Origin: Eledone cirrhosa
Lineage: Eukaryota
DNA length: 64,000 nucleotides
Reading direction: 5' to 3'
Assembly (NCBI GenBank): GCA_964016885.1
Contig: CAXHJY010000159.1
Coordinates: 1 to 64,000, forward strand
Shown here: positions 8,911-52,866 of the stretch, piece after piece
How the letters are laid out: each line of letters opens with the position of its first letter
Numbering within the stretch: position 1 is the stretch's first letter
Program-made: the position numbers and the translations under genes
The notes under the pieces: generated by a model
What the model was told of the DNA's origin: nothing
Seen by the model: the letters and a program-made list of their open reading frames with translations, nothing else
The model's database searches: none

Positions 8911-9120
8911 AATGTTAGTTAAGACGGTATTAAATCACCATATGCTGAACCACTTCATTACTGGGTGGAGGTGCATGACCACCGGCATATCACAATTACT
9001 GCATAACTGCACCAATGCTTGCGTATGTAATAACTATGTAACAAATAACTATGTAACAGAAATATATATGATGCAATAAACAATTATGGTGATTTGATCC
9101 AGTCTTAACTACCATTATTT

Positions 9121-9631
9121 GATGGTGGATTGGCAGTATCGGTAGAGGGTCGGACGTCATGCTTTCCAGCATAGTTATGTCCCTTTACGATCTGAGTTCA
9201 AATCCCGCCGAGGTTGACTTTGCCTTTCATCCTTACGAGGTCGATAAAATAAAGTACCAGTAATGCACTGGGTAATTTCTGGCCTTGTGTCTAAAGTAGA
9301 AACAATTATTTGATAAATGTAGTTTCATCCTTACGGGGTCGATAAAATAAAGTACCAGTAATGCACTGGATAATTGCTGGCCTTGTGCCTAAAGTAGAAA
9401 CAATTATTTGATAAATGTAGGATTTGATAAACGGAGGATTGGCAGTATCGGTAGAGGGTCGGACGCCATGCTTTCTAGCATAGTTACGTCCCTTTACGAT
9501 CTGAGTTCAAATCCCGCCGAGGTTAACTTTGCTTTTCATCCTTACGGGGTCGATAAAATAAAGTACCAGTAATACACTGGGTAATTGCTGGCCTTGTGCC
9601 TAAAGTAGAAACAATTATTTTATAAATGTAG
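9121..9631 (+). mobile_element. Tandem cluster of SINE family A (full + 3' half + full)
   Basis: A-box-like TGGCAGTATCGG and B-box GAGTTCAAATCC. The body GCCTTTCATCCTTACGGGGTCGATAAAATAAAGTACCAG is repeated three times. Confidence 0.88.
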
Positions 9632-9701
9632 TGATTTGGTTCGCTGAAGCATGTTTATCATCAGGAAGTTACTACGTAATAACTAAGATAAACAACACTC
9701 T

Positions 9702-9748: not shown

Positions 9749-10315
9749 GTATGTTATTAGGTAATCCTGTGATACGTATTTCGATGGCATATGTTATGTA
9801 ATAATCAGACACGATCTCATCAAACAGTACATTACTTATATAGTCATTAGTAATGTGATCTTTGATTCGGTATACTAGCTGACGGGCTTACTGTTGTTTC
9901 TTCACCACTCAACTAGCAGGAGTTACCCAAAGATGTCTTTCCTAGCTCGCATCACTGAGGGCGTGGCTTTTCATTGGTCTATATTTCGAGGTGGTTCGTA
10001 TTAACATGTTTCGTCATTTTTTGGCGTCAAACTAATGAATTGGCCATTCATTATGATATTGTGATAATACGAACCACCTCTAAATATTGACCAATGAAAG
10101 GCCACGCTCTTAGTGATGCAAAAAAAAGAAATACATCTCTGGGTAATACCATATGTTAGCTGAGCGGTGAAGAATCAACACCTAAGCCCGCCAGCTGCTA
10201 TATTGGTTGGATATTTATATCACTAATGATTATCATTAGTCTGATGAGATCGTGTCTGATTATAACATAACATATGCCATCGAAATACGTTTTACAGGAT
10301 TACGTAACAACATAC
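9749..10315. mobile_element. Foldback/MITE-like element with about 250-bp imperfect inverted arms
   Basis: GTATGTTATTAGGTAATCCTGTGATACGTATTTCGATGGCATATGTTATG mirrors CATAACATATGCCATCGAAATACGTTTTACAGGATTACGTAACAACATAC. Pairing continues inward to about 10003/10066. Confidence 0.7.
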
Positions 10316-12784: not shown

Positions 12785-12942
12785 TTGGCAGGGACGTTAC
12801 TTAAGGCTCCTTAAAACGCTTCGGTATTCGTTCTGACTCAGTACACTCTCAGTTAAAATCCCGCCATGAATTATTTGCCTTTCATCCTTTTTATGTCAAA
12901 AAATCTAGTTCCACTCAAGTACTGAGGTTGATTCTTCCCCAG

Positions 12943-12987
<45 letters not shown>

Positions 12988-13103
12988 TATATTGAGAGAG
13001 AGAGAGAGAGAGGGGGGGGGGGGGGAGAATTAACCTCAGTACTTGAGTGGAACTAGATTTTTTGACATAAAAAGGGTGAAAGGCAAATAATTCATGGCGG
13101 GAT
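12785..13103. repeat. Decayed SINE-A fragment with a local inverted duplicate (12858-12940 vs 13021-13103)
   Basis: Arms are near-identical reverse complements, separated by (CT)(TA)(GA)/poly-G. Confidence 0.85.
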
Positions 13104-13199: not shown

Positions 13200-13337
13200 T
13201 CGCAACTCCAGGTAGAAGGAGCAACGTGAAATAAAATGTCTTGCTCAAGGACATAACGCATCGCCTGGTCCAGGAATCGAACTCACAACCTTACGATTGC
13301 GAATCCAATTCTCTAACCACTCAGCCACACGCCTTCA
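13200..13337 (-). mobile_element. CORE-type SINE family B, 5' part
   Basis: Minus strand has a tRNA-like head (GTTCGATTCC) and CORE-like TGTCCTTGAGCAAGACATTTTATTTCACG, matching 23436-23775. Confidence 0.8.
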
Positions 13338-13343
13338 TATATA

Positions 13344-14074
13344 TATAAAGAATGAATATATCTAGTAACATATATATACATACAGATGCAGATCAATGCT
13401 AGCAAATATATAGGTTTTGTCTTAGTAACTTTGTGGTTCAATGCATGGGGTTGCAGAACAATAATATGAGAGACGTAAAATAAGAAAATTATAAAATTAA
13501 CTTACTTACTAAAATTTCACTCCCAACTAATTAGTTTCTGAAATGGAATAAATATATTTTCCGAAGAAGATATAGAGAATCATTTCGTCGTCAGGGAAGT
13601 CTATTCTCAGCTAAGTTTCCAGGCAAATCGTGGACTCTGGAAAACTTATACAAAAATAATTCAGTGGATAGAAAATAGCAAAGCGTGGACCGAATTCCTA
13701 GCCATTGAGAAAATCACTGCCTACTGCGTCGGTGGCAAATTCAAAAAGAATCAATCACGTGACATCGAGGTTAATCAGTGGAAAGTGGTTTGTTAAGAAG
13801 ACGGCGGCGTGCCTGCTACCATAGCAGCAGTCTTGGCCAATATTGCTCGACAAATAATTTGGAGATAATTATAAAGAATTAATATATCTAGTAACATATA
13901 TATACATACAGATGCACATCAATGCTAGCAAATATAGACTTCCCTGACGACGAAATGATTCTCTATATCTTCTTCGGAAAATATATTTATTCCATTTCAG
14001 AAACTAATTAGTTGGGAGTGAAATTTTAGTAAGTAAGTTAATTTTATAATTTTCTTATTTTACGTCTCTCATAT
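13344..14074 (-). mobile_element. Non-coding HHR-containing element: 526-bp unit with direct repeat plus inverted arm, in (TA)n
   Basis: Direct repeat 13344-13410 = 13870-13936; inverted repeat 13464-13604 vs 13934-14074; TA tracts on both sides. Confidence 0.8.
13938..14019 (+). ncRNA. Type I hammerhead ribozyme motif (mirror copy at 13519-13600, minus strand)
   Basis: ACTTCC-CTGACGA-c-GAAATG...CATTTC-a-GAAA-CTAATTAG-TT-GGGAGT: stem I, core, long stem II, palindromic stem III, GUU cleavage triplet. The basal pair of stem II is a C.A mismatch. Confidence 0.75.
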
Positions 14075-14089
14075 ATATATATATATATA

Positions 14090-14163
<74 letters not shown>

Positions 14164-14400
14164 AAAGAATAGAGGTGTAACACACGAGTTGTGATATATT
14201 GGTAAAAGGAAAAGAAAATGCTGACAAATTGTTCCCAGTGAAAAATAGTTTAATTAGGAATAAGTAAAAATTAGTAATAAGTATTGGTTAGTATTCAGTT
14301 TTAGTTGTAAATTTTTACCGGTTGCGCATTTCTAATGCTTTTCAAAAATAATTTTGAGATAGAGCGCCTGTGATGTTTGTTCTAATATATATATATATAT

Positions 14401-14929
14401 ACAAGCAAATTATAAATGTAAACATGTAAGTATGTTTTTGAAACGGTGCGCGAGTTTGAAAATTAGAAATTAGAAATTATAAGCTTTCACCGTATTTTAG
14501 ACTAAAGAAATTTCTAGCCTGATAGTGGGGTTTATAACCCTCGGAGAAATAGAAAAAAAAGATGAGTGTTGCCGTACATGGGAGTCGAACCCACATCTTT
14601 GGTTATCCAGACCAATGTGCTACCATTACACCAATACACATCCCGTCTCCCTCCATTTGAATTAGAAGCTATGAACTTAGCAAGTGAATGATAAACAAGC
14701 AAATTATAAATGTAAACATGTAAGTATGTTTTTGAAACGGTGCGCGAGTTTGAAAATTAGAAATTAGAAATTATAAGCTTTCACCGTATTTTAGACTAAA
14801 GAAATTTCTAGCCTGATAGTTCGACTCCCATGTACGGCAACACTCATCTTTTTCCATTTCTCCGAGGGTTATAAACCCCACTATCAGGCTAGAAATTTCT
14901 TTAGTCTAAAATACGGTGAAAGCTTATAA

Positions 14930-14937
<8 letters not shown>
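14401..14937 (-). mobile_element. Non-coding 294-bp unit with direct repeat plus inverted arm, carrying a tRNA-like gene, in (TA)n
   Basis: Direct repeat 14401-14526 = 14695-14820; inverted repeat 14469-14590 vs 14819-14937. Confidence 0.8.
14570..14640 (-). pseudogene. tRNA-like sequence (Gln-like D arm, folded anticodon GGA) followed by an oligo-T Pol III terminator
   Basis: TGGTGTAATGGTAGCAC; TTGGT-CTGGATA-ACCAA; GTGGG-TTCGACT-CCCAT. Acceptor stem imperfect; T8 run about 9 nt downstream. Confidence 0.7.
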
Positions 14938-14973
<36 letters not shown>

Positions 14974-15499
14974 GAAAACGAAAAATCAGGGATGCATCGG
15001 AACTCAATTTATTGCGTATTACAATTGTTTCCCCGGCGAACAGCGCGAGGAGCGAGCCGTGTTTGGATCGACCTGACTATATATATAGTAATAATAAAAT
15101 GTGAAGACTAAAATCCAAAGAGGGCTCGATGAGGATAAATATATATAAAATATATAAGAACCCTAAAATATATATATGGAAGAAATCTGTTGTCTTCAGA
15201 TCTGGAGAGGGGTGGGCTCCGTCAGGTTTTAAATGGCAAAAATACACTGTGTGTCAGGACGGCGTCCCTACGACTATATAAGAACTTATTATCTTATATT
15301 ATAAGGAGTCTAGACAGATACACACAACGTCCACCCCACCTCTGACATACTAAGACCAACCAATACCACCCGTGACAACACTTTCAGGGCTATCAGCATA
15401 TAATACACCACATGAAACAGCATATAGACTGTACACTATAACAAAGCAGACACACACACATACACACACACACACGCACACGCACACGCACACACATAC

Positions 15500-15541
<42 letters not shown>

Positions 15542-15879
15542 ACACATACACACACACACACGCACACGCGCACGCACACACACACACATACACACACATA
15601 CACACACACGCACAGAGTCACACAACAAATCAAATCATCACTAGTTAGCTAAAACTTGTCTAATGGAGGTGTACATATATTGTACATCACGATGAGGCTC
15701 AGGTTGATGACGCGCCAAAACTATATATTCTCACTAGCCAACTCTTGCAAATTCGTCACAAGCCAATTTCTTAACACTTTCGTAACAATAATTCTGATAA
15801 AAACACTCTGTATTTGAATTAATCAGTGAAGAATCTGAGGGGATTTATTAAAACTATTTTCATTAGTAAGATCATATCT

Positions 15880-16330
15880 AACGCAGTGGATTGGCAGTAT
15901 TCGTAGAGCATCGGACACTCTGCTTAACGGCATAGAGTTATGTCCCTTTACGTTCTGAGTTTAAATCCCGTCAAGGTTAGCTTTGCCTTTCATCCTTACG
16001 AGGTCGATAGAATAAAGCACCAGTAATGCACTGGGGTCGATTTAATCAACTTACCCCCTCTCCCCAAATTGCTGGCCTTGTGCTTATAGTAGAAATCATT
16101 ATTAATATTATATTTAGGACGGTAGATTGGCAGTATCGGTAGAGCGTCGGACACCCTGCTTCACGACATAGAGTTATGGCCCTTTATGTTCTGAGGTCAA
16201 ATCCCGCCGTGGTTAGCTTTGCCTTTCATCCTTACGAGATCGATAAAATAAAGTTCCAGTCAATTTAATCGACTTTTCTGCCCCACAAATTGCTGGCCTT
16301 GTGCCTAAATCAGAAACCATTATTAAGATT
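15880..16330 (+). mobile_element. Two tandem SINE family A copies
   Basis: Two heads (GATTGGCAGTAT) and two GCCTTTCATCCTTACGAG..CGATA bodies. Confidence 0.85.
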
Positions 16331-16612
16331 ATATTTGAATATAACAAGAGTTTTTATATAAAATTATTTTGGAAGATTTTTAATTGAGAAAAGCCCCTTT
16401 TAAATTGGTGACTTTGTTAGATAGAACTAGGGGCAATTTTGGGCGGGTTAGTATCGAAAGGATTAAAATGTTGACTCTCCAGCTATGTCGTTAGGAATTT
16501 CACGCATAGCATCACATGACCTCCATAGTACAACGTGGTCCAATGCAGTAAATATACAATTTTATTCAGTGCTTATGTATGTTTTGTTTTCATAAATATA
16601 TATTTTTATACA

Positions 16613-17455
16613 CGAAGGTCGGCTGAAAGGTTCATAGGCTGGAATATGACCAAATGAGGTTTATTTTTCAACATAGTTCCCCTTGCGGTTCACATACTTA
16701 TTATTAATAACAGATATGACATCATCACTACTGAGATACTGGTTCACAGCCAAGTGTTTTTTCATGTTGGGGAACAGATGATAGTCAGATGGGGCAAAAT
16801 CAAGAGAATAGGGACGGTGATCAATCAGTTCAAATCCACATTCATGCACAGCAGCCATTGAAACCAAGGACTTGTGTGCTGAAGCTTTGTCCTGATGAAA
16901 TAAGACACCTTTCGTCAGTTTTCCTGGGCGTTTCGTCATGATAGCCTTTCGTAACTGCCCAGCAAGTTGTCATAGAACTCTCAATTGTGCATCCAAAAAC
17001 ACTGATGCCATCACCTTCCCTGCAGATGAAACGGTCTTGGCTTTTTGGTGCAGTTGAGCAGGTGAGTTTCCGTTGCATGAATTGTCTCTTTGTCTATGGC
17101 TCAAAGTGATTAATCCAGCACCCCTCATGAATTCAGCTGTCCACTTTTGCACTGGTGATAAAGCTGGAGCGTCATCCATTAATGTAGCAACCATGTCAGC
17201 ACGAATACCCATGGGCGCCAAACTGTTTTTCTGTAGTTACTTGATAACGGCACAATGCCAAATTTTGTCGATTTTCAAGAGAAATCGCTATAAGTTATTT
17301 TTGAAATCTTCTTTGAACAGTCACATGTCAGTTTACCAGAAGGAAAAAAACAATGCAGTTATTAATAGGAAGAGTTGAAACTAATGTATGCAAGATTTCA
17401 CAGCTCTAGCGTTGCTTTTTCATGGTCATTCTGTGTACTTTTCAGCCCACCCTCG
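16613..17455 (-). mobile_element. Internally deleted mariner transposon
   Basis: TIRs CGAAGGTCGGCTGAAAGG / CTTTTCAGCCCACCCTCG-TA. ORF fragments SAGKVMASVF, LFHQDKASAH and PYSLDFAPSDYHLF (YSPDLAPSDY motif). Confidence 0.9.
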
Positions 17456-17754
17456 TATATATCTTTATATACTTTTCGCTTATAGTTTAGGATTCCACAA
17501 GGAGTAACATTCAGACATTAATGCCAGTTTGAAACTACAAACATCTCATAGTGAAATTCAGTGATATAATAATGTTGTATATATTATTCAACGATCTGGC
17601 AGATAACATGTTTTTACTTGCTTAATTACACACATGTTTGTGTGTATGTGGGTGGGTATATGTGGGGGTGTATGTGTGTTTGCGTGTGTTCTTTACCAGA
17701 AGAAAAAGCAATGCAGTTATTAATAGGAAGAGTTGAAACTAATGCATGCAAGAC

Positions 17755-18010
17755 CAACTTAAGCGAGCTTTCAAAAGCTGCGACCACAGCAACTGGGAAT
17801 CTGATGCGCAGTACAGGGAGCTTTGTAGGAAGGTGAAAACGTGTATAGCATACTTTGAGTTATCGAGAAAAGACGCCCTCGAGGCGAAGAAACAGGACTA
17901 ACTGACGGAAAAAAGCTCTGAAGCCCCACCCATCGCCATATATCCAATACTCAAGATGCCCCAGGCTCTTTCGTGCACAAATTAGACTGATATCCCACCT
18001 ACGGGTGATT
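17755..18010 (+). mobile_element. RTE-clade LINE 3' end remnant
   Basis: WESDAQYRE...FE..R...[16 protein letters not shown] resembles the RTE C-terminus. Confidence 0.6.
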
Positions 18011-18073
18011 AACAGAGGGAAACTTATCTTCTATACTCTGACAAGTGTCAATAATATTATATATATATATATA

Positions 18074-18139
<66 letters not shown>

Positions 18140-18144
18140 CACAC

Positions 18145-18183
<39 letters not shown>

Positions 18184-18189
18184 TACATA

Positions 18190-18236
<47 letters not shown>

Positions 18237-18482
18237 GTTTTAAGTATTTCCGTAGAAAAGGTAAAGGAAATAAGAGGGCTCTGTGTATAGTACAGAGCTA
18301 TTTAATTACATAATAAACAACCCAATATAATTATTCCATTACCAAAGGTTTCAAGAAACTAGACAATCTTTACAGAAACGTCTAGTTGTTTATTATGCAA
18401 TTATATATATATATAGGAACAAGTAGGACCCCGACAGCTGAGCTCAAGCCGTTTCGACGGCTAATTCTGGACTCTAATTCTG

Positions 18483-18556
<74 letters not shown>

Positions 18557-18683
18557 AGAAGCAAAAAATTGCTCATTGTGATCCAGTTCTTGGTTAAGAA
18601 AGCCAGTTTCATTGATGGTTTCAACGTACGGTTAGAGGTAACCCCACAAGTTTGTAAGAATTCTGTTCAATCTTGGAGTATAA

Positions 18684-19034
18684 AGTATAAAAGAGAAAAC
18701 ACAGGTAAGCATTAAGAGAAGGATCTTATCCAGGTATTTACGACCGTTTCATTGGTAAGTGCAACCTTATATTGATATACTGCAAATAGCAGCCACTCAA
18801 TTATAATTGTTGTTCACAGTCCAAATTTTCAACGAAAAAAAAAAAAAAAAAAAAAATCTTTAAAAAAAATTTTTTTTTTTTTTTTTGAAAATTTGGACTG
18901 TGAACAACAATTATAAATTGAGTGGCTGCTATTTGTAGTATAGCAATTTAAGGTTGCACTTACCAATGAAACGGTCGTAAATACCTGGATAAAATCCTTC
19001 TCTTAATGATAACCTGTGTTTTCTCTTTTATACT
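18684..19034. repeat. About 150-bp inverted repeat (18684-18832 vs 18885-19034) with decayed HHR, PLE pLTR-like
   Basis: Arms are near-identical. Plus arm reads TTGAAAA-t-TTGG...CCAA-t-GAAA-CGGTCG-TA; poly-A/poly-T spacer. Confidence 0.75.
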
Positions 19035-19065
19035 ATATATATATATATATATATATATGGGGAGG

Positions 19066-19493
19066 GTCATATTTGTGTAATAATATTGCCAGAATTAATA
19101 ACAGAACACACTCACTGTTTGGTTGGTTTTCGCTTCTGTGTTTTTTATATCAGTTAATTTAATATATGCGGTCCTCAATATTTATCATTGACTGACCAAC
19201 GGTCAAAAATACAGATATAATATAGACGCAAACAGATATATATAGTCTAACAAAGTTCTTTCGTTGCACATCTGCAACATCGTCAGTGGTGCTATTATGT
19301 TTCCTCATGTTTGTTAGACTATATATATCTGTTTGTGTCTATATTATATCTGTATTTTTGACCGTTGGTCAGTCAATGGTAAATATTGAGGCGCGAATAA
19401 ATTAACTGATATAAAAGACACAGAAGCGAAAACCAACCAAGCAGTGAGTGTGTTCTGTTATTAATTCTGGCAATATTATTACACAAATATGAC
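19066..19493. repeat. About 185-bp inverted repeat with an HHR core in the spacer (19255-19291, minus strand)
   Basis: Arms 19066-19254 vs 19310-19493. Minus strand CTGACGA-t-GTTGCA-gatg-TGCAAC-GAAA-GAACTT-TG; same pLTR type as 48412-48650. Confidence 0.8.
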
Positions 19494-19578
19494 AATATAA
19501 ATATGACAGTATAACAATATTTGTTTCGACACACGATTTCATATCAAAAACCTCGCAAAACTATATATATATATATTA

Positions 19579-19618
<40 letters not shown>

Positions 19619-19629
19619 ATATATATATA

Positions 19630-19785
19630 CGATAGGCTCCACCAGTTTCAGTCTACCAAATATCCCTCGCAAGGCATTGGCCAAACTGAAGCACTTGCCC
19701 AATGTGCCATGTAGTGGGAGTGAACCCGAAACCACGTGGTTGAAAAGCAAACTTCTTAATCATACAGTCATGCCTACGCCTGTGT
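19630..19785 (-). mobile_element. Octopus-type CORE-SINE family C fragment
   Basis: Minus strand CACGTGGTTTCGGGTTCACTCCCACTACATGGCACATTGGGCAAGTG...TTTGGTAGACTGAAACTG; related copy at 47035-47270. Confidence 0.75.
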
Positions 19786-20878
19786 GCGCATAAATATGTG
19801 TGCACATGTGTCTGCACGCGCGTGTGTGTGTGTGTGTGCATGTGTATCGTCATAGGAATACACATAGCAGAGCGTAAATGTGAGTGAGCCATATATGTGG
19901 GTGTGTACGTGTGTATGTGTATATGCGTAAATAGATAACTTTTTTTTTAAATTGCCTTCCAAAATGCTAAAATATTACCCTACTTAGTTTGATCATTTTA
20001 CGTTCAAATCCCATGTATAAGGTCGACTTTACCTCTTATCCTTCCGCATCGATAACATAAGTACCAGTCAAGTAAAGGGGAGCGTTTTAATCAATTTTCC
20101 CTTCTGCCAAAACTGTGTGACCTTGAGTAAATCATAAAAATCAATATTACGCATTGGCACAACAGTACACATTTTTGGCAGAAGGTACTTGACTGCTGCT
20201 TATTTTATCGATTTCAGAAGGAAGAAAGGGTAAATTGACACCGATAAGATCTGAAGTCAGAACGTAAAGGAACATGATTCAATACTGCAAGATAGTTTCT
20301 ACAGCGTCCTGTAGATTCTCTTAATTCTCTGCCCTCGTATTCTGCAATATTAAAATTATTTTCAATTACCAATTATTATATAAAGATTTTTCTTTATTGT
20401 TTGTCGTCTACACAACAATACGAATGTAATAACGTACGTATTATTACTCAATATAATATCTACACTACTATGATGTACGTAATATTTCTATTTAATAAGT
20501 TTCTATTATAATATAAATAATTGAGAATTTAATCATTTTTGTTAGTTTTAACATATAGAATTAATGAAAGCTATTTATAAAAACATATTATTTCATAATG
20601 TTTTATTAGTTTTAGCTCGATTAAACAATGCGCTGTCTTATACGACTTTAAATTAAAATACACGAGATTTTGCTTTAATATATCTATAAGGCATAACCAT
20701 TGAATCATGTCTAGATTCAACACTTTTAGTAATATTTATTTTAAAAATTTGTGTAATTTGAGAAAATCTTTTTTTCACGTCATACATTTCAGCCAACTCT
20801 TTAGAAAGGTATCCTCTTGTTTCACACTCAAACACAAACACAAACACAAACACGCACACACATACACACACATTCGCG

Positions 20879-20921
<43 letters not shown>

Positions 20922-22428
20922 GCGCGCGCGCACACACAAACACGCGCGCACACACAAACACGCGCGCGCGCACATACACACATACACAAACACGCACAAA
21001 CACACACTCACACACACACACAAACGCGCACGCACATGCACACACACACACATACACACAAACACACATGCACACACACACACAGCACAATTTTGAAATT
21101 TACCTTCATTGTTGAAAGGTTGTTGGTGGGTTGTAGAAAGGTGCTGCTGGTGTTTTGTGAAACGTTGCTTTTACAAGGCAAACTGAAATAATTTCCCAAG
21201 TTTTCCGATAAATATTACAATTAAAACGTTAACTTGAATGTGAATATGAGTTTAAAGTAATCCGGAATGTAAAAATTAAGCTTTTACAGCAAAATCTACC
21301 GTCGAACTGAAGAAAAGCGAACGCGTTAAGAAGAATGCAGTGTTCAGATAATCTTCAATAACCGGAAAAGAGCTAAGAATGTTGTCCCCTTTTTTACAGT
21401 ATTTTGCAGATAACGTATTTATATTTTTCAAATAAATTCATGAAAAACAAACAGTGTTAATCTGATGGTTGTGATTTTGATTCTTGTCTGTGAATAAAAA
21501 AATTTCACATTGCCTAAAATGGACTAATTCCCAAATAACAAATGTTTCAATTGTTTGATCTCTAAAAGGTGGTGGTTTATTCTTTAGTTTAACATCTCTC
21601 TCTTCTATAGACGTAAAACTTCGTGTGAATATAATGATTAATAATTTTTTTACACAGATGATTCTTCTATTAGGTAGTTGTAGTATCACCTTTTAAGAAG
21701 CATATATTGATCTGGACATAAAGGGATTGCTATGAAATCGGACCGCAAGTATATGCGAGTTCGTAAAGTAACATAAGCATTGCTCACATTAGAAGATGAA
21801 ATTATGAATGGTGAGCAAACTTGGAGCTGGACACGAGATGAGTCCCGCAGGAAATCAGGAAAACTTCCGTATACCTCAAACTACGATACGAGTGTTACAA
21901 CAAGCACAGTCGAAATTTATTACTTTAAAACATTTCGAAAATGCAGAGTAGCGTTATAATCTAGAGATTATATGTAGAAATCATATGTTGTATAGAATTT
22001 GAGTAATAGAGGAATTTGGCATTTACATGACAAGAGACAGAAAAGCAATAATTGAGTTTTTTTTATAAAAGATATCGAGAAATGAATCTAAGACTAATCC
22101 ACAGTCTAGGCTGAATTAATTAATGAATTCACAGCAAAATAATGCATGAAATGTTTTTGTATAACTTCTAAGTTATACTGAATTTCATTCAAACTTAAGT
22201 AAATAGAATTAACAAATTCCATTCAAATTTGCGTGATCTAATATCACAGAAAAGTCGTCTTAAAAGAGAAAAATAGAACGCTTCCAAAAAATAATCACTC
22301 ATTGAGACTATTTATGTACTTAATTACGTATTATTGGTATATGATATTAATGTTTCGTGATCGCGTGCAAATGATTATTCTTTACTGTTTTGATTTAAAT
22401 TATTTCAAAAGTAGACAATTTCTCTTTT

Positions 22429-22508
<80 letters not shown>

Positions 22509-23435
22509 TAAATTTAGCGAGAATCGCATTTCGGCGGGTAGAAATTGGCGAAACGCAACTTCTGTATTGTGCAGACAAGCGCTCCATGGATATGAAGATA
22601 TCAGAGCTATAAACATAAGTCAAAATGGTCATACAAACTGAGACGATGGTTAAGAAGCCATTAACCACCTTAGCCAAAAAAGCGAACAAGCTAAACGGGT
22701 CAAACAAAATAAGTAATGATTGAAATAGTTACCCGGACCCTCGGGGAAGATGGAATACTCCGATATTTGGGTTTCTGCAACACCTAAATCAATAATACTG
22801 TCTGCTTATAAAAAATAAGCTTTTGGTATAATGATCGAACAAGGCATCGCTTTCTCAACAGGCATTTTGCTCTTCGTGCGCCAGAATCTCACAGGTTATG
22901 AAAGCACATGTGAGGTTCTAAGGGGAGGAAACCCCTATTTTGGCCAGTGAATTCAGCATGTGTAGTTATTGCAAAAAATTGCAAAAAAAAGCACAAAACG
23001 AATTTAGCTCTCGACCGAGTTGTTTTTAAAATAAACTTAAGCGATTAATCAGTCAATAGAGTTATATATATATACATATCAAACAATAGCGAAAAGACAG
23101 TGAAAACGTGCGGAAACAGGCAACGAATGGATAAACACCTTGAACCTTAGAACGCTGGAGTGGGAGAAGGCAAAGATGGCGGCTGGTCATTATGATACTT
23201 GATTCTTCAGATATCAGGCGGGTATCTCCCTATTTTCTTCACCTAAAGTAGGGCTTCCTATCCAACGGAGTTAACAATGTAAAATAAAAACTAGTTTTAA
23301 TACCACTTGGAAATTGTACAAAAATACATATAAATGGGAGAAGACGATCATACTTGGATGAAATATATGTGTGTTTCATGTATGTGTGGGTATGAGTGTG
23401 CGTGTGGGTGTGTGTGGGTGGGGGGGGGTGTATAA

Positions 23436-23774
23436 AGGTGTGTAGCTTTGGGTTAAGGAGTTGAATTCACAATTATGAGATTGTGAGTTCGATTCCGAGA
23501 CCGGATGATGCGTTGTGTTCTTGAGCAAGACACTTTATTTCACGTCGCTCTAGTTCACTCAGCTGTAGAAATGAGTTGTGACGTCACTGGTGCCAAGCTG
23601 TATTGGCCTTTGTCTTCATGACATCGGTGGTATGGCGAGGGGAGACTGATGTGCATGGCTGACTGCTGGTTTTCCACAAAAACAACATGCCCAAGCTTGT
23701 GCCTCGGAAAGAATCCTTCTATGTGAATCAAAACCCATCTTCATTCATGACTGTTCAGTCACGAATGAAAATGG

Positions 23775-23775
<1 letters not shown>
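23436..23775 (+). mobile_element. CORE-type SINE family B, near full length
   Basis: tRNA head with GAGTTCGATTCC and CORE-like TGTGTTCTTGAGCAAGACACTTTATTTCACG; matches 38255-38557. Confidence 0.85.
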
Positions 23776-23865
<90 letters not shown>

Positions 23866-24064
23866 TATATATTCATTAGTTAAGCAAAACAAGACCACAA
23901 ATTTCACAAGGAAGACATTATTAAAAGATTGTCAACATATTTTACTTTGATGTAAGGAATGTAGAGAATAATAATAATAATATTAATATATATATATATA
24001 TATGAGTGAATGTATGTATATATATATATAGAGAGAGAGAGAGGGGGGTGGGGATAGATAGATA

Positions 24065-25016
24065 TCTTTCTTTATTTGCCACAGACGTGTACAAACGTGA
24101 CGGCGGGAGTTTTACATAAAAAATCATATAACTTTAACATTAACAATAAACTATATATAATAAAACAACAATTGAAATCCCAATAGGGGGGAAGGTTACG
24201 TCAGGGTAGTTTTACACTGCGTGGGTAGAACAACCCTCGACACCAGGAACACGTTTTGTAGGTGTTCCTGTCTTCCCTCTGTTTACTTCCACAACCTACA
24301 GGTTTATATACAGAGAAGGCCCATTCACTCGGGTCATTTTCGCCACATTCGCCCACCTTTCAGCGAATTTACTGGGATGTAGCACCTCTCTCTCCACTCT
24401 CACCTTCCTTCTGAAGTGGTACTTAAAGAAGGGGATAAGTTGTTGTCCGGAGAGAAAGGTGTTTGCCCTCAGTCCTTTTAACCTCGTCCACCATATTACC
24501 TCTTTCGCCATAGCCACCAGACAGAGGAAAACCGCCTCTCCTTCATTCTTAAATGAAGGCGGCGGGGTGAATCCTCACGATCGACTAGGCTGACAACTGG
24601 ATGCGTCCCACACGTGACAGTAGCTGTTCGACATAATTCCACAGGGCGGTCACCCCTGGGCACTGAACAAGTGCGTGCAGAACGGTTTCGATGTCCTGCT
24701 TGCATCTCGGACAGGTCCTTTTGGCAGGATCTCTGCCAGGGCGTCCGTGCCTGTAGATTTTGTCTCGAACTGGTAGAGCTTCTCGGTAGCACTGCCAGGC
24801 CACAGACCTCTGGAAGTTATCCATAGGCCCTGGACGAAAAGTCCTCCCGAACTGACTGGTCAGTTCGTCCTCCTCGATGCCTAGAGTTTCCCCGAGACAT
24901 TCGTCGCACTTATCCTCCACTAATCCCCTATAGAATGTCGAAGTGGAGTCTCCGCTCCGCTGATTGCCTTTTCCGCTTGGTAGAGGCCTGTGAGCGCCTG
25001 AAGGCACTCGAGGTGA
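24065..25016 (-). mobile_element. 5'-truncated L1/Tx1-type LINE
   Basis: C-terminal CPRCKQDIETVLHALVQC zinc knuckle. 3' end GTGGCAAATAAAGAAA followed by (TATC)n; homologous to the adjacent element. Confidence 0.9.
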
Positions 25017-25269
25017 CATAGATAAATAGATAGATAGATTTCTTTATTTGCCACAAGGGCGCACAAGAAAATGGGACAATACAAAGACATGCCGGGGATT
25101 TTACATACAGTCGTGTAAAAATATAAAACAAACAATTACAACAATCGAAATCCCCAATAGGGGGAAGCGCCACAAATGGGTTGTTTAATACCCCGTCGAT
25201 AGAACAACCCTCAACTCCAGGAGCGTGTTGTGCAAGTGCTCCTTTCTTCCTTTTGCTCTCTTCTTTAAC

Positions 25270-28200
25270 CTACAGGCTTATAAACAGAGAAGGCCCAATC
25301 ACACGGGCCATTTTCGCTTCATTCACCCACCTTTCAGTAAATTTACTGGGGTGCAGTGCCTCTCTCCACTCTGATTCTCCTTCTAAAGTGATACTTAAAG
25401 ACGGGAATCAATTGTTGTCTGGAGAGAAAGGCATCTGTCCTCAGTCCTCTCAATCTCGTCCACCATATAACTTCTTTCACCATAGCCACTGTACTGAGGA
25501 AAACCGCCTCTCTTTCGTTTTTGAAAGAGGTTGGCGGCTTGATCCTTATTATGGACTCGGCAGTCAACAGGATTTGTCCCATACGCGACAGCAGTTGTTC
25601 TGCTTAGTTCCACAGGTCGGTTACGCCCGGGCAGTGTACAATTGCGTGCAGGACTGTTTCAATGTCCTGCGCACATCTTGGATACGTCCTCTTGGAAGGA
25701 TCCCTGCCGGGGCGTCTGTGCCTGTAGATCTTATCACGAACCGGTAGCGCTCCTCGGTAGCACTGCCAGGCCAGGGACCTCTGGAAGTTGCCCATAGGTC
25801 CCGGGCGGAAAGTCCTACCAAACAGACAGGTGAGCTCATCGTCTTCGGCGCCCAGAGTCTCTCCGAGCAGGTCGTCGCCCTTGTAACGTACAATCCCGCT
25901 TGCCAGAGGACTGTGAGCGCCTGAGCGCATTCAATGTGCCAGGCGCCCATCGTTTTCGGTCTTTTCTTGACCCAGGACTGCAGCTCCGTCAGCGAGACGA
26001 GCTGTGGGAAAGCCTGTCTCACAAACGGTGCCCACACCGGTTGGGGATCGGTGAGGAATACCTGGAGATGCCGCAGCCTCATCGCATGTTTGCGCATCAT
26101 CAGCCACGGCATTCCCAGCCCTCCGTTGGAAGGGTGCTGACAGCAGACGGATCTCCTCACCAGCGGAGCCTGCTTCTTCCACAGAAACTGGAAGAGCATG
26201 CGTTCCATCTTGGCGAGGTGTTCACGGGGACAAGGCACGACAGTTAAGCGATAGTAGATGACGGACGCTATGAAAGTGTTCGCCACCACTGCTCGACCTT
26301 TCAAGGACAGTTTGCACTCTTCCCACTTCTGGGTGAGCGCAAACACCTTGGCGGTGACCTCGTTCCAGTTTTTCTAAACCTGGAGGTCTGGACCGAACCA
26401 GACCCCGAGAAATTTCACCGATGACGTCCGTCCAGCGTCAAACGACGCTGTCGGACGTCATCGGTTTGCCTCTCCACGTACCGAGTTGCAACCCGACAGA
26501 CTTGTCCGGGTTTAGTTTTGCTCCCGTCAGCATTTCGTATTCTTTCAGTAAGTTGCCGATCACCCCGATTTCCGAGGTGCTCGACACCATTACCGTCAAG
26601 TCGTCGGCATAAGCCGACACCGCTTTGCGCAGTCCCGGTTCTAGAGGGATGCCCTGCAACAGCTCCAATTTCCGCAGTAGTGGCTCTAGAATCAATACAT
26701 ACAGAATGGAGGAGAGAGGGCACACCTGTCGAATGGAACGCATGATTGCGAACGGCTCCGATATGTAGCCGTTCACCTTGACCCTCGAGCAGATTCTGGT
26801 GTACATCGCCTCGATCCAGCCTCTGAAAACGGGACCGAAACCGGCCGCCTTGAGAACCGCTTCCAAGTATCGATGGTCGACCCTATCGAATGCCTTAGAC
26901 TGATCCAAATTGATCAGAGCCCCACCAAAGCCGGGTTTACTACCCACTCTCTCTATGATATATCGTATGAGGTGGAGGTTGTCGTGTATGGACCTGGTCG
27001 GGATTGCACACGTTTGCGCTTTCCCTACCAGGTTCTCGACGACAAGCGCCAACCTCATCGCTAGCACCTTGACCAAAATATTTAACTGTGTTGAGCAGAG
27101 TTATCGGACTGAAGTTGTTGATTTCGTCCCCTTTGTTCTCGTCTTTTCTGATCAGCGTTACTACGCCCTTGCCTGCAGAACTGGGAATTCTCCCGTTCTG
27201 CTGCCAATTGCAGTAGACGGCTTCGAGGACACCAGAGAACAAGTCCGGCATGCCTATGTAAAACTCATAGGGTAGACCATCTAGACCGGGTGACTTGCGT
27301 TTCCCGCAGCGGCCCAGAGCGTCCCGTATCTCAGTGTCCGTGATCGGTCTTTCGCAGAATTTGGCGTCCGTGTTCGAGAGAGGCGGCAGGCCGTCGAGGT
27401 ATGAACTAAAATCCATTACCCCGTTCGGCTCACCGTCGTTCTGCTCAAACAGTCGCGCAAAGTGCTGCTGAAAGGCCGCCCACATTTGCTTGGGGTCAAG
27501 TAGCACGCGTCCGTTTTGGTCTTTCAAAGACCGAAGCGTGGACTTGTTGCCACTTTTTGCCTCCGCCACTCGGGCCCAGCTGACAGCTTTCGCTCCTTTG
27601 TTTCCTAGAGCACGTGTTTGCTTCTGACCACGCAGCCTCCGTGTTTCGCGAAGAAGAACTGGTCTAGTGCTGTTCTCGACGCTAACACTCTAGCCGCGTT
27701 GCCACTTCTAAGTGCCTCCTCTACCTTGGCTACTAGTTCTCTTTCTATTTTGTTTTTCTCTAAGTCTAACTCTTTGCTAAACTCTATCGATTCTACTCTA
27801 ATTGCTTTCTTGAGAGAGTACCACCATCTATTGTTGACGATGGCTCCCGTTAACTGTTGCTTGACTAGTCTACTTATCCGTTCACTGTAAGCTTTACGTG
27901 CCGGCAACGACACGTTCAGCTTCCGCTATCCGATGCCTGTCTATGTGTTCTATCACGGTTGACTAAGCAGACGACTAATTTGTGATCTGAATAGGCAACC
28001 ATGTGCATTCGTGGACAGCTTAACATCTCCTTGTCCCTTTCTCTAATGAAGAACCTATCTAAATACGATCTAGATGTCCCGCTGCGGTTTGCCCACGTCC
28101 ACTGTGGTGCAGTCGGGAAATCCAGTCGATACCTATCGGCCAGTTGGAATTAGCTGATTAAAGTTTTGAGGCTGTTGCACCCCCTCTACTGGGACATGCT

Positions 28201-28667
28201 CCCACATAGTCCCATTGTGCATCTAGGATACCATTCCAGTCCCCCACTAAAAGTAAGGAACGAGACGTTCCCAGCAAAGACTCTAGACGCTTAAAGAAGT
28301 CTGGCCGTGATTGCGATTGCCCGGTCGGGGCATAAACGGCCACCAGTCTGAAGGCTCTACCTCCAATACTGTTCACGTCTAGGACTACCAGTTTACCCTC
28401 CGGGTCCAAGTGTACTTTCTGTACTTCGACGTCCAGGTTCTTCCGAAACTTGACAGCCACTCCCTCTCCACCCCCTGGCTGACAGAGAGATGCGTAGATC
28501 TCAAAGTCGTCGAAGATGAGAGTTAGTTGCTGCCTGTTGTCGATCCTGGATTCGGTGATGGCTATCACATCCATACCGTGTGACCTAAGGTCGTTTAAAA
28601 GTTGGCCCTGTTTCCAGGGCATCCCTAGGGCACGCACATTCACTCTTCCAACTCGTAAACTAGCCAT
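25270..28667 (-). pseudogene. LINE ORF2 (APE endonuclease, reverse transcriptase, C-terminal zinc knuckle), disrupted
   Basis: NVRAL...ITES...VYAP...VGDWN (APE); KSPGLDGLPYEFY, LDQSKAFDRVDH, RQVCPLS and AYADD (RT); split over several ORFs. Confidence 0.93.
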
Positions 28668-28709
28668 GTTGGTGAAGAAAAGTTGAAGAAAAAGGACGAA
28701 AAGGTGCAC

Positions 28710-30532
28710 TTACCGTTTCGTTTCCTGGTGATCGAGTTGTTCAATCTCCATTTGGGTGCTGGATGGGGTGTTGGATGGGGTGGGGAAACATTTTAATAGG
28801 ACGCGGTTGATGGGTTTCTGGCAGGAGTTGCCCACGTCCTGTGAAAATTTATTTTTCAGGTCACTATAGGTCTCCATAGAAACCCTTATAAGTTTAAAGT
28901 GTGGAGACGATTCTGCTTTAGCGAAAGTTTTGCCCTCCGTCTCCACATTGGGGTTTTAGAAGATGACCTCCATCAAACTCTTGTTGTTTGTGTTGATGTA
29001 TGCGTATTGTTGTTTGTGTTTTTGTTGTGTTGTTTTAGTTTGTTGTTTGTCCGGGAGTTTTCTTTTTATGGTGGATGCTTGTGTTTGGGGTGGTGTTGGT
29101 GTTGGTTTTGCTGGTAGGGGAATGTTTGACTGTGGTGTTGTTTGTGTTGTTGTTTGTGTCTGTGGTTGTGTGTTGGTGTTGATGATTGGAGTTTTGGGGG
29201 TTTTGTGGTGTCTCTTTTTTTGTTTTTTAGATTTCTGAGGCTCTCCTTCTTCTTCACTTAAAGAAGGAGAAGCAGCCTCATCTGTCAATGAATAATCATC
29301 GTCAGGTGTGTGGGGTAGGGGTATGTTGTGTAGTGGTGGTGTTTCGGTGTGTGTGTTTGTGGTAGTGTTTGATAGAGTGGGATGGGGTGGGGCTGTGTTC
29401 CTCAGGGGTGTTGTCTGTGTTTTTTCTGTTGTTGTTGGTTGAGTGGCTGTTTGTTTTGGTGTGTTTGCTCGTTTCGTCTGTTGTTGTACTTGTGGTGGTG
29501 GTTGTTTTGGTCTTGGTGTTGGTAATAGTGTTTTTTAATGATGTTGTGGTGTGTTTGTGAAGGACAGGAGGCATTTAGGTGTGCTGTGCTACCACAGCGA
29601 AAGCAAGGAAGTTTTTTTACCCTCCACCGTAATGTTTATTTTGTTGTTGTCGTCGATGACGACTTTTTCGGGTATTTTGGAGATTCTCTCCGGCCTCATT
29701 TGAATCAGAATCTCCAAATCACTACCCGCCCACCTTTGTCTAATAGACTTTCGTATCGAAAGAATCATATCAGTCTCTGACTCTACGAAGCCAGCCAAGA
29801 TCCACCAGATGTTAATGTTTGGTGGGGGGGGGGGGGGGGGGGGGTTGTGTATTTTTTCCCATGTACGTAGAGAAAAGGGTGAATGCTTTTGACACCATTG
29901 GTGTCACAGAATGTTTTTGGTCGAGTGCCTCGCTTTTAAACAGTACGGAAACACTTCCGTACTGTTTTCCTCATTGGAGAAAGTCAATATTTGCTAGAGT
30001 CTCCTTGAAGATAGCTTCTATATCTGCTTGACTAACAAATATCGGCTTTCTCGTTGTGTTGGAGACAGTCCTAAAGGTCACTGTCCTACGAACTGTCTCT
30101 TCTTTTATTTCGAGAGGTGAGTTAATTCTAAACCCACCCTTGTCTTCGAAAGTTACAAATGTTCTCCCTTGCTGGAGCATATCTCTTGCATTGGAGATGT
30201 CAAGATTTATGAAATCTTGTTTTTTGTTCACTGTTTCAGCGAAAGACATTTTTTTGTGTGGTATTGCTGGTGTTGTTGTTGTTGTTGTTGTCGTTGTTAG
30301 CCTCGGTGTTGGAAATCTCAGTTCCTTGACGAGGTGAAACTTTATGTATAGATGTATCTGCGGAGTTGTTGATGTTGTCTTTTTCATGTGTATGTATATT
30401 AATAGGTTTAATTCCTGTGTTTTCCTGTGTGTTATTGTTATTTTTCTCCGCTTCGACGCTAGAAATTTTAAAATCTTCAAGTGGTAATATTTTTTTCTCT
30501 TTGTTGACAGTCGTATCTACGGCGACGTCCAT
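28710..30532 (-). pseudogene. LINE ORF1 (gag-like, CCHC knuckle), disrupted
   Basis: Minus strand about 29562-29608 encodes CFRCGSTAHLNASC (CX2CX4HX4C), followed by a Thr/Gln/Lys-rich tail. Confidence 0.8.
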
Positions 30533-32149
30533 AGTAGCAGAAGCAGATATAACGTTAATATCTGCTTCTCTACTTCTCTTCTCTCTCTCTCGACGTTCTC
30601 TAGCGTTCTTTCCGAGTTATTCATGTTTTATAGTTGGCAAAATTTGATATTTTAAAACAATTTTTAAATTAAATTTTCGCCCCTAAAGGGGCAAAAAATG
30701 GGATACCACCCAGATGACAATTCAGTTTGGGGGTTAATCGACAAAATGTTATGTTTTTTCAAACAATTAGTTCGGTTTTTTGCATAGAAATTAACAAAAA
30801 AGCTTACCGGCGATGTTCCAGGCGTCAGGCAGATAAAGAGATAGATAAATAGATAGATAGATAGATAGATAGATATTTCCCCTCATCAGTTGTTTGCTGT
30901 TGGTTTATGATGTTTCGGTGAATTAAAAACAATACATCTATCCGCAAGTCCAGTCAGACTTACATCTTACCATTTTTGCATTAACTCTTTTCCTCCCCCT
31001 CTCTTTCTCTCTCTCTTTCTCTCCCTTTCTCTCTCTCTTTCTCTCACTCTTTTCCTCTCTCTTTCTCCCCCTCTCTCTCCCTGCCCCCTTACTACTTCCA
31101 TTTCCTTCGTCTCTCTCTCTTAAAAATAAACGTGTTTCTCTTAGCCCTCTCGTTGTTAAGGTCTCTTAAGCCTAGCTGCCTTTTTTAACTTCGTTCTCTC
31201 TCCCCTTGGTTACTCTGCATACATACGCCCCTGACCTGCGTTTCCCCCTCTCTATCGGTATGCTTTTACTATTTTTTCTCTTCTTTCTTTCTTTTCTGTT
31301 TTTTTTTTCTCTCTCTTCGCTATCGTTTCTTTTTCGTATTTTCTTTCCCTAATAACTTTTTAAGTTATTATCGCACTACGGATAGATGTAATGAAATGAT
31401 AAAAAATAATGATAAAATATTAAAAAAATAAAAAATAATAAAAAGATAAAAAATACGGTTATTCTTAATAGTAGTAGTGGTGGTGGTAGATGAAGTTATA
31501 ATGGTGAGTAAGAGGATGTGTAAAATAGTGATGACAGTAATGATAACAATAACATGAAAAGAAATACGATATATGAAAGCAACATTTTGGGTGAGTGGAT
31601 ATAGTGTATTGAGTAGTACAGGATTAAAATAAACAGTAAGAGAAAAAGAGAAAAAGAACAGGAAATAGAGAATAAAGAGTAAGGATTTGAGGATGAGACA
31701 ATGGAGGTGAACTGACTATAGAAGGGGAAAGAAAGGTTTGGGGATTCACGATGTTGATTAATGGCCCGTTGGTTAGTTAACAGTTAATAACAGTGGAGTG
31801 ATGTTAGTACATTTAAATCCGGATGATTCTGACTGAATACTGAGATCGCTAGATCAAATTATGCCGGTTGCGGTTTGAAGCTGGAGAATTTAGTGGCTGC
31901 TTTGTGCCTACAGAAGATTGTACTCTACTGCAGCTAACATAGAATCACACATACATAAAATCAACTATAAAAGAATTTCTAAGGAATGTAATCTACCAAC
32001 ATACACCATGCACCAAATACAAAACGCAAATACATAATAGCATCACAACCACCCACACGCCAGATCACATCACAACAAAGCACCAATAAACTTAAATCCC
32101 AGATCATCCCTAACAACATACAGAACCGATGCGGGGAACCTGCACACAG

Positions 32150-32545
32150 GAAGGCCTCCAAGTGTAACTGCCACCTACCGGATAAATGCCCACTGCAGAA
32201 TAGATGCCTCGAATCAAATATAGTATACCTGTGTGCTATCAAATCTGGCAACCTAGCATGGCACTACATAGGTTCTACAGCTGGAGACTTCAAAAAAAGA
32301 TGGTATGCATAGACATTCTATAAAAAACTGTAAACTTGGGAATACAACGACACTGGCCAATAAAATCTGGCAGCTTAAAGATATCAACCAAGAATATGAG
32401 ATTTTCTGGTCGAAGTTATCGAGTGCAAGGGCCTACAAAAATGGAATATCCCACTGCGGACTATGCATTATGGAACTGCTCCATATTTTAAAATTTGATA
32501 AAAGGAAATTTCTTGTTGAGTCAAACAACGCCGTACGTTAAAACT
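32150..32545 (+). pseudogene. Penelope-like element GIY-YIG endonuclease remnant
   Basis: KCNCHLPDKCPLQNRCLESNIVYLC...HYIGSTAGDFKKRWY, then frameshift to HRHS...TTLANKIWQLK...CGLCIME. Confidence 0.88.
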
Positions 32546-32610
32546 ATCCACAGTATAGAGTACTCACAACTTCTAACTGGATACTTGTTATCCTATAATA
32601 TATATATATA

Positions 32611-33150
32611 TAAAAATTAGAATTGGAGCTCTGAAATAGCAATATATATATGGATGTATATATAATGTATTTTGCAATACACTTTATGCTTAATTAAAAG
32701 CATTTTGAAGACCGTATGCTATTGTTTTAGAGTAGTGACAAATTCACTTACTTTAATCTCAGCAAACAGGGGAGATAAGTCGACAAGGCCTTGTTTCGCT
32801 TTTGTTGAAGCTTATCAAGGCTAACTACCCCTCCTGTCTACTGAGATTACTGATGTTATATTCTTATAGAATTCTAGTAAATAATCAGGAACTGATTATA
32901 CAGAGCGATTGTTGGTCAGGCAGAAATTAAAAATTAGAATTGGAGCTCTGAAATAGCAATATATATATGGATGTATATATAATGTATTTTGCAATACACA
33001 TAAGCTTCAATAAAAGCGAAACAAGGCCTTGTCGGATTATCTCCCCTGTTTGCTGAGATTAAAGTAAGTGAATTTGTCACTACTCTAAAACAATAGCATA
33101 CGGTCTTCAAAATGCTTTTAATTAAGCATAAAGTGTATTGCAAAATACAT

Positions 33151-33161
<11 letters not shown>
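32611..33161 (-). mobile_element. Non-coding 317-bp HHR-containing unit with direct repeat plus inverted arm, in (TA)n
   Basis: Direct repeat 32611-32682 = 32928-32999; inverted repeat 32654-32815 vs 33000-33161. Decayed HHR at 32778-32822 (minus): TTGATAA-GCTT..AAGC-GAAA-CAAGGCCTTG-TC. Confidence 0.82.
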
Positions 33162-36284: not shown

Positions 36285-36575
36285 TAATATTACTTCAAAA
36301 TATTAATAAATATAGACATTCATATAATCAAATATATTTTATTATACATATTTCAGAGGTACTGAGCTATTTCATCAGTACGTCCTCATTAGATAAAATA
36401 AATTGATGTCTGACTGGAATTGAACCATCAGCACAGTTGAGGTATGTCAAACATCAATTTATTTTATCTGATGAGGACGTACTGATGAAATAGCTCAGTA
36501 CCACTGAAATATGTATAATAAAATATATTTGATCACATGAATGTCTATATTTATTAATATTTTGAAGTAATATTA
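36285..36575. repeat. 130-bp inverted repeat of an HHR-bearing pLTR end (36285-36414 vs 36446-36575)
   Basis: Near-identical reverse-complement arms; the left copy has the core mutated to CTAATGA. Confidence 0.88.
36460..36525 (+). ncRNA. Type I hammerhead ribozyme, intact core
   Basis: TATTTTAT-CTGATGA-ggac-GTACTGA..TCAGTAC-cact-GAAA-TATGTA-TA-ATAAAATA. Confidence 0.85.
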
Positions 36576-52830: not shown

Positions 52831-52866
52831 TGTACATATACATACATATATACATACATACATACA

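Follow-up and report, generated by a model that had tools for sequence, protein, structure and literature searches.

Insertions of Penelope-like elements (PLEs) typically consist of partial tandems joined to an inverted, 5′-truncated copy, often with a tail at one end only, and lie in (TA)n targets (Craig 2021, PMC8557442). Work on how they are written has described two internal start sites for reverse transcription, a tail that corresponds to the stretch between these sites, cutting and extension of both strands, and a predicted dimer (Frangieh 2024, PMC11167929). The present study concerns three short noncoding elements, named E1 (13344–14074), E2 (14397–14935) and E3 (32611–33159), in a stretch of 64,000 nucleotides from Eledone cirrhosa (GenBank assembly GCA_964016885.1, contig CAXHJY010000159.1, positions 1 to 64,000), which is called the window and to which all positions refer. 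Our analysis suggests that E1, E2, and E3 are unrelated, noncoding mobile families with two fixed ends beside (TA)n, and that they were likely written by a PLE reverse transcriptase (RT)–endonuclease. We consider this mechanism probable in full, and the PLE footprint taken by itself more secure still.

With the endonuclease-positive (EN+) PLEs Neptune, Hydra, Naiad, and Poseidon (PMC8557442, PMC11167929), E1–E3 share the partial tandems, the inverted 5′-truncated arm, the one-end tail, the (TA)n targets, and two internal RT start sites. They differ from them in having no open reading frame (ORF), in tails of ~26–120 nt as opposed to 30–40, and in a strict pairing of two end sites, A and B, with short target homology at the ends. 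The non-autonomous Chlamys elements of the alga Chlamydomonas, such as MRC1 (Craig 2021, PMC8557442), are likewise noncoding PLE passengers with head-to-tail multicopy insertions; however, their 3′ ends are held in common with autonomous families, whereas no such family was found for E1–E3 among the three PLE families compared. Animal retrozymes that lack long terminal repeats (non-LTR retrozymes; PMC7229834; Li, Clavereau and Pollet 2026, 10.64898/2026.07.22.740005) resemble E1–E3 as noncoding, low-GC tandem units of a few hundred bases with a proposed dependence on PLEs, and their type I hammerhead recurs in E3 only. In contrast, E1 and E2 have no complete hammerhead, and the accessible text of these two sources makes no mention of a tRNA head, of arms in inverted orientation, or of fixed ends used in pairs. 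The nearest published case found for E2 is that of the short interspersed nuclear element (SINE)-like hammerhead repeats of schistosomes, of the Sm-alpha/Sj-alpha type (PMC6765202), which combine tandem repeats with an RNA polymerase III (Pol III) promoter; these carry a hammerhead, unlike E2, and the accessible part of that source does not mention paired ends of the PLE type.

The accessible text of PMC13282606 and PMC8490949 contains nothing specific on the E1–E3 families, and paper supplements and repeat libraries may already hold them. No published description of a tRNA-headed, ribozyme-free PLE passenger was found in a search that left most subscription journals, Repbase entries, and supplements outside its reach, and a literature search on twin priming in PLEs returned nothing relevant. 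The footprint and the retrozyme class are themselves already known. tRNA-derived SINEs have a tRNA-like head with A and B boxes, a unique body, and copies that start at tRNA +1, as in E2. E2 differs from that class in a 3′ end set by two internal priming sites, in its tandem arrays and inverted arms, and in having no tail like that of a long interspersed nuclear element (LINE).

Layout of the three elements

Self-BLAST of the masked window, combined with reading of the sequence, gave the arms listed here (repeat finding on the whole window was dominated by microsatellites).

13344–13936, minus strand: E1 main arm, 1.13 monomers of a 526-bp unit, outer end at the far site A (13344)
13934–14074, plus strand: E1 second arm, outer end at the near site B (~120 nt upstream of A in the unit)
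14397–14820, minus strand: E2 main arm, 1.44 monomers of a 294-bp unit (291 bp in the consensus of the family), ending outward at site A
14819–14935, plus strand: E2 second arm, starting in the T-loop of a tRNA-like unit, outer end at site B
32611–32999, minus strand: E3 main arm, ~1.25 monomers of a 317-bp unit, outer end at site A
33000–33159, plus strand: E3 second arm, starting inside the predicted hammerhead core, outer end at site B (26–31 nt upstream of A)

The elements share a common plan, in which a minus-strand arm of more than one unit stands head to head with a shorter plus-strand arm and (TA)n lies outside both. The direct repeats span 67 bp in E1 (13344–13410/13870–13936; 97%, period 526) and 126 bp in E2 (14401–14526/14695–14820; 100%, period 294); that of E3 runs from 32611/32928 with a period of 317, over 72 bp to the junction at 33000 by reading and 91 by BLAST. 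The inverted arms match the main arms over 137 bp at 100% identity in E1 (13934–14070), 120 bp at 97% in E2 (14819–14935), and 160 bp at 98% in E3 (33000–33159). Comparison of the monomers with one another returned nothing beyond AT-rich words (best E 0.045), and the longest ATG ORF in the three consensus monomers has 27–41 codons. An earlier sequence-only reading of this DNA had reported a shared layout with 67–126 bp of terminal redundancy, an inverted arm of 120–160 bp and (TA)n flanks, in units that are mutually unrelated and do not code; on each of these points our results agree with it. Copies of common SINE-like repeats lie at 8689–9638, 15860–16336, and 13218–13339, and E1 stands at the head of one of them.

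Three high-copy families with fixed, paired ends

Genome BLAST shows that each of the three units is a young, high-copy family of its own, so that the single-copy status which the sequence-only reading had named as contrary to its proposal does not apply. First-look candidates in the E. cirrhosa genome number 2615 (E1), 1724 (E2), and 1389 (E3); these figures, like the one for E1b below, are lower-bound in style and are not copy numbers. A 34-mer of E2 has 749 exact matches in the genome as opposed to 0 for its reversed control, and one DNA search with a 68-base E2 query gave no candidates. For the genome sample, 180 loci were mapped onto consensus multimers, yielding 154 distinct insertions, with 3 near-duplicates removed; 119 of the 154 are two-armed, 94 with both ends classifiable as A or B and 25 with an end elsewhere. 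A position-ordered E2 sample was taken from the first 100 of the 749 matches to the exact 34-mer, along contig C1, and comprises 80 insertions; part of its loci are shared with the genome sample. A first short-query E2 sample, whose query crossed the window's own junction, was excluded from the stop statistics given below.

In every family the outer ends fall at two sites, A far and B near, with a spacing of ~120 (E1), 60–75 (E2), and 26–31 (E3) bases, and each site finishes in a few TA-like bases. A was paired with B in 88 of the 94 classifiable two-armed insertions, the three families taken together (p 4e-20 vs. 0.5), and in 35/36 of the position-ordered E2 sample; the sister families behave similarly (E1b, 13/13; E2b, 11/14). 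The ends are therefore fixed, and not circularly permuted as the sequence-only reading had anticipated. Its expectation of (TA)n flanks at genome copies proved correct: (TA)3 directly follows 105 of 131 E2 arm ends in the position-ordered sample, and (TA)n flanks also occur at the mapped loci. That each element exceeds one monomer is true of the three window copies but not of the family, since only 14 of the 80 position-ordered E2 insertions have arms longer than one unit; the maximum arm lengths are 2.3, 5.4, and 3.1 units for E1, E2, and E3. With partial tandems and an inverted 5′-truncated arm, a tail, two fixed and paired 3′ ends, and insertion into (TA)n, the families carry the PLE-type integration footprint that had been claimed for them.

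E1b (L181–L200), a 553-bp sister of E1 that is ~73% alike, has 2003 first-look candidates, forms arrays of several units, has paired ends as in E1, and has no complete hammerhead. At E2 junctions such as L304, L315, L327, and L124, the two arms are separated by short templated inserts whose sequence is copied from close by in the element, a pattern known from microhomology-mediated end joining.

The tRNA-like head of E2 and the T-arm stop

On its sense strand, E2 contains a tRNA-like unit that the sequence-only reading had overlooked.

14570–14642, minus strand: tRNA-like cloverleaf (ARAGORN; Rfam RF00005, 43.5 bits, gathering 29)
14577–14585, minus strand: T-arm stretch, tRNA positions 58–66, the stopping point of about half of the E2 arms in the family
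14553–14560, minus strand: T tract 3′ of the tRNA-like unit (T8 in the window, T5 in the consensus), a possible Pol III terminator past which synthesis of the templates must continue

An A-box-like segment (14623–14633) and a B-box-like segment (14581–14591) were placed with box consensuses, and the unit was numbered with tRNA positions. The pseudo-tRNA has a short variable loop and a U at position 37. Its core is identical at 61/61 positions between E2 and the 260-bp sister family E2b, as against 173/199 for the rest (p 0.001), and in E2b the acceptor stem pairs fully and the score reaches up to 50 bits.

Among the 110 arms of the position-ordered sample that enter the T-arm, 57 stop within 9 bases, a 27-fold hazard with a sharp upstream edge at tRNA position 58/59 and only 9/129 stops in the 15 bases downstream; in an older set, E2c, 19 of 28 stop there. 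Single arms stop at the T-arm as well (13/29 in the position-ordered sample), and the pile-up is therefore not solely a matter of joining at palindromes. Of 30 insertions in which both arms reach the T-arm, the pair stops together in 15 and passes together in 14, with a single discordant case, and stops are far rarer at later encounters with the T-arm than at first ones (3/26 vs. 56/103; two samples were pooled for the later-encounter count). Given this arm concordance and the rarity of later stops, the block looks like a property of the RNA molecule, with one molecule read by both arms. The T-arm site is a GUUCRA T-loop, a motif that is methylated by TRMT6/61A outside tRNAs and truncates cDNA (10.1101/202747), and the stop may be caused by modification to 1-methyladenosine at position 58 (m1A58), by the T-arm fold, or by cleavage. 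RNase Z cleavage was rejected as the cause of the pile-up: the arms retain the acceptor 3′ strand and begin at 111–119, not after 126. A second pile-up of 5′ ends lies at tRNA +1 (E2, 5/39; E2b, 12/32; E2c, 3/4), which would equally result from RNase P cleavage.

Judged as a tRNA-derived SINE, E2 has the tRNA-related head with internal A and B boxes; a LINE-derived, poly(A), or simple-repeat 3′ tail and a LINE-type insertion are absent. Its two internal fixed ends and inverted arms therefore set it apart from a classical LINE-driven SINE; the likely reading is that of a tRNA-derived SINE for whose movement a PLE provides the enzyme.

Hammerheads and sequence sharing within insertions

Two motifs bear on the ribozyme content of the elements.

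32765–32832, minus strand: predicted E3 type I hammerhead with a core of the U3-A8 variant, a stem III that is palindromic, and cleavage expected after 32782 (HH9, 23.6 bits, E 0.0018)
13583–13594, minus strand: hammerhead-core-like motif of E1, without stem II and incomplete

The HH9 score of the E3 motif, 23.6 bits, is under the gathering score of 52. The motif sits at the tip of a long stem (fold z −6.4), and the window copy has one stem I mismatch that is absent from the family consensus. A U3-A8 core variant has been described in PLEs by Cervera and de la Pena 2014 (PMC4209133). In E3 relatives at 65–80% identity, the core, stem II, and palindromic stem III change together, as expected of covariation; such relatives include L180:280–896, L005:702–1111, and L145:1911–2257, one of them with a canonical C3-G8 hammerhead. 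E3 thus appears, from its sequence, to be a new member of the retrozymes, a hammerhead retrozyme, and part of a wider retrozyme superfamily in this genome. In E1, CUGACGA is followed by GAAA after one base, which leaves no stem II; a second register has stem II but no stem I, no register has all helices, and Rfam gave no ribozyme match. The sister family E1b has GCAA where E1 has GAAA. E1 would appear to be a ribozyme-less or ribozyme-decayed relative of the retrozymes, and its core-like motif may be a hammerhead that works only as a dimer. Neither Rfam nor motif reading found a hammerhead in E2. The sequence-only reading had assigned type I hammerheads to two of the elements and a retrozyme-like character to all; only E3 passes on both counts, E1 and E2 having no complete hammerhead, and the single ribozyme-based system proposed for the three is not supported.

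The sense strands of E1 and E3 carry a splice-donor-like GTAAGT and an initiator-like TCAGT upstream of the ribozyme region, motifs of the kind found in the pseudo-long terminal repeats (pLTRs) of PLEs; E2 has a donor-like motif on the opposite strand. The elements are noncoding tandem units with GC <50% and lengths of ~150–450 bp, except that E1 (523–526 bp) lies above this range but inside the 51–972 bp of Li 2026. The 5′ ends of E3 show no hot spot at the predicted cleavage site (3 of the 101 arms that enter it), so that linear cut monomers are not the main template; a circle and an uncut multimer both fit. E1 5′ ends have a flat distribution.

A non-consensus allele is 4- to 11-fold more often common to copies within one insertion than to copies taken from separate insertions. 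At recurrent polymorphic sites, the numbers of all-minor and mixed insertions are 45/8 for E1 (13/81 under independence), 16/24 for E2 (5/56), and 10/14 for E3 (2/35). Shared rare changes gave no clear signal of A-to-G editing scars (6/25 in E1, 1/8 in E2, 2/8 in E3), T>C being equal or commoner. Terminal redundancy had been read as RT passing more than once round a circular or multimeric RNA. Repeated copying of one molecule is favored by the shared alleles, but the redundancy alone shows no circle, because fixed internal priming with random 5′ truncation suffices on any multimeric template.

Coding PLEs and other features of the window

Two coding PLEs lie in the window.

48412–51324: coding two-armed PLE with RT and GIY-YIG, broken, with a Cys-rich linker
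43233–46310: coding two-armed PLE whose inverted arms measure 692 bp and whose ORFs, for an RT thumb and a GIY-YIG-like domain, are broken

Both are two-armed, in keeping with the inverted junctions noted there before. The family of the element at 48412–51324, Neptune-like by its linker, has two fixed outer ends 56 nt apart, with 14 and 15 ends; by analogy, it could serve as a model, as a candidate only, for the machinery that would move E1–E3. In the element at 43233–46310, reading by eye found a motif like a hammerhead, its core a variant one, ~50 bases ahead of the (TA)n end. An older PLE family (L251–L270) has a tandem repeat of ~305–330 bp in its 3′ region that is unrelated to E1–E3. At L018 and L071 an E-family arm, at L071 one of E3, is joined head to head with a coding PLE.

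Further inverted-repeat elements occur at 9749–10315, 12858–13103, 18685–19033, 19066–19493, 36287–36573, 42909–43074, and 51486–53450; several adjoin microsatellites and recur in other loci, and some may be further two-armed PLE-type passengers or miniature inverted-repeat transposable elements. On the minus strand, 62496–63428 is a voltage-gated potassium channel exon with an Rfam K-channel RNA editing signal over gathering score at 62724–62837, and 24165–30616 holds a broken LINE, in which frames for RT and endonuclease are found and the stretch 24165–25882 is a partial duplication. In short contigs from three runs of one sample, maybe the source sample, site B of E1 (13464) appears as a loose end in (TA)n, and there are joints from 14580–14584 to 14829–14836 that resemble T-arm junctions; none of those listed crosses the locus.

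Discussion

In the mechanism that we favor, a PLE enzyme would cut both strands of a (TA)n tract, and a single RNA molecule would be primed by both DNA ends, by the first at site A and by its partner at site B, with the aid of 2–10 bases of TA-like pairing. The two cDNAs would extend toward the RNA 5′ end, stop, and be joined head to head by microhomology repair. Arms above one unit would require a multimeric or circular template, and the E2 RNA, presumably a Pol III transcript, would supply templates of three classes: those blocked or cut at the T-arm (about half), those starting at tRNA +1, and those read through into multimers.

Several observations weigh against this mechanism. Six of the 94 two-armed insertions are homotypic, and the sharing of alleles within insertions could come from local gene conversion. 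Apart from the position-ordered E2 sample, which requires an exact 34-mer, the samples are mostly top BLAST matches and hence tilted to young or long copies. Low-stringency BLAST found no sequence shared between E1–E3 and the three PLE families compared, beyond AT-rich words. The joints at L018 and L071 are equally explained by nested insertion with deletion, and the PLE family at L071 is unrelated in sequence to E3 and much older (copies 80–91% alike). The ends described here have short TA homology, whereas the priming described by Frangieh et al. took place without target homology and showed no start-site difference between strands. For E2, the fold predicted to have the lowest energy is not the cloverleaf (z +1.0 and −0.9), and the priming sites are separated from the head by the T5 tract, both of which speak against a simple Pol III model; misincorporation at A58 in read-through copies (2/91) does not clearly exceed that at other A positions (12/1638; p 0.17).

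The shape of the template is where alternatives come closest. The sequence-only reading took E1–E3 to be, all of them, ribozyme-made circular RNA replicons whose redundancy reflects RT round the circle with permuted ends. Arrays of up to 5.4 units, alleles common to the units along arrays, and the lack of an E3 5′-end pile-up at the cut, as expected of ligated or uncut RNA, are in its favor, and animal retrozymes do form circles (PMC7229834). Against it stand the missing hammerheads of E1 and E2, ends that are fixed and not permuted, and the many E2 copies that terminate in the T-arm or at tRNA +1, in agreement with linear templates; we regard it as unlikely. That all templates were linear read-through transcripts of homogeneous tandem source loci, with no circle in any family, is a serious possibility to which we give somewhat less than an even chance; it agrees with our preferred mechanism in all but template shape. 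Uncut RNA is the main substrate and the hammerhead is dispensable in vitro (Frangieh 2024, PMC11167929), non-autonomous Chlamys elements insert as head-to-tail multicopies though most Chlamys have no canonical hammerheads (PMC8557442), and E1 builds arrays without a ribozyme. Yet daughter arrays cannot exceed the length of a linear source, the purity of arrays for subfamily alleles suggests a one-unit bottleneck, and stops are rare where the E2 T-arm is crossed for a second time, as if one unblocked site were read again. On balance we lean slightly toward E3, and E3 alone, having been made via a circle. More tentatively, and with considerable doubt, we propose that E2 may be a PLE SINE whose tRNA-like, Pol III-type RNA would be m1A58-marked by the host in about half of the molecules; a pair of PLE enzymes would start copying a single molecule at its two fixed sites, working from either end of one DNA break. 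On the same reading, the ribozyme-free E1 and E2 arrays may stem from RNA circles formed independently of ribozymes.

Other accounts dispense with a separate passenger or with a property of the RNA. That E1–E3 are 5′-truncated pLTR ends of coding PLEs would explain why their footprint matches that of the coding PLEs in the window, and retrozymes are related to pLTRs (bioRxiv 10.64898/2026.07.22.740005); it is nevertheless very improbable, for long arms at the mapped loci continue into the next monomer and not into an ORF, none of the arms examined was found to be such an end, and the three PLE families compared show no similarity. Less probable again is that E2 is an ordinary LINE-driven SINE, or that foldback or recombination within an unstable (TA)n tract produced the arms once the insertion was in place. 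A tRNA head with boxes of the Pol III type is typical of SINEs, and tRNA-like SINEs are abundant in the window. Against this stand the two fixed internal 3′ ends in strict pairs and the head-to-tail arrays; E2 itself carries neither a poly(A) nor a repeat tail, and foldback would give an identical end on both arms. The T-arm pile-up could also reflect microhomology at CATG/GTAC palindromes, or loss of copies with an intact B box, since its peak (32 of 131 arm ends at 116–117) lies on a palindrome plus an AT able to pair with the target. This we hold to be improbable, given that 17 other 4-base palindromes in the unit have no such peak, that the hazard is flat just downstream of the T-arm, that its upstream edge at tRNA position 58/59 is so sharp, and that where one arm passes the other passes in 14/15.

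On the mechanism that we prefer, the T-arm stop acts as a per-molecule label, and the 29/30 concordance offers direct genomic support for the origin of both PLE arms from one RNA. The origin of PLE tandem and inverted structures therefore becomes testable with a template of 260–290 bases in the existing in vitro PLE assay. If the proposed origin of E2 is true, a tRNA-headed, ribozyme-free passenger with the full PLE footprint would place PLEs among the sources of the enzymes by which SINEs are mobilized.

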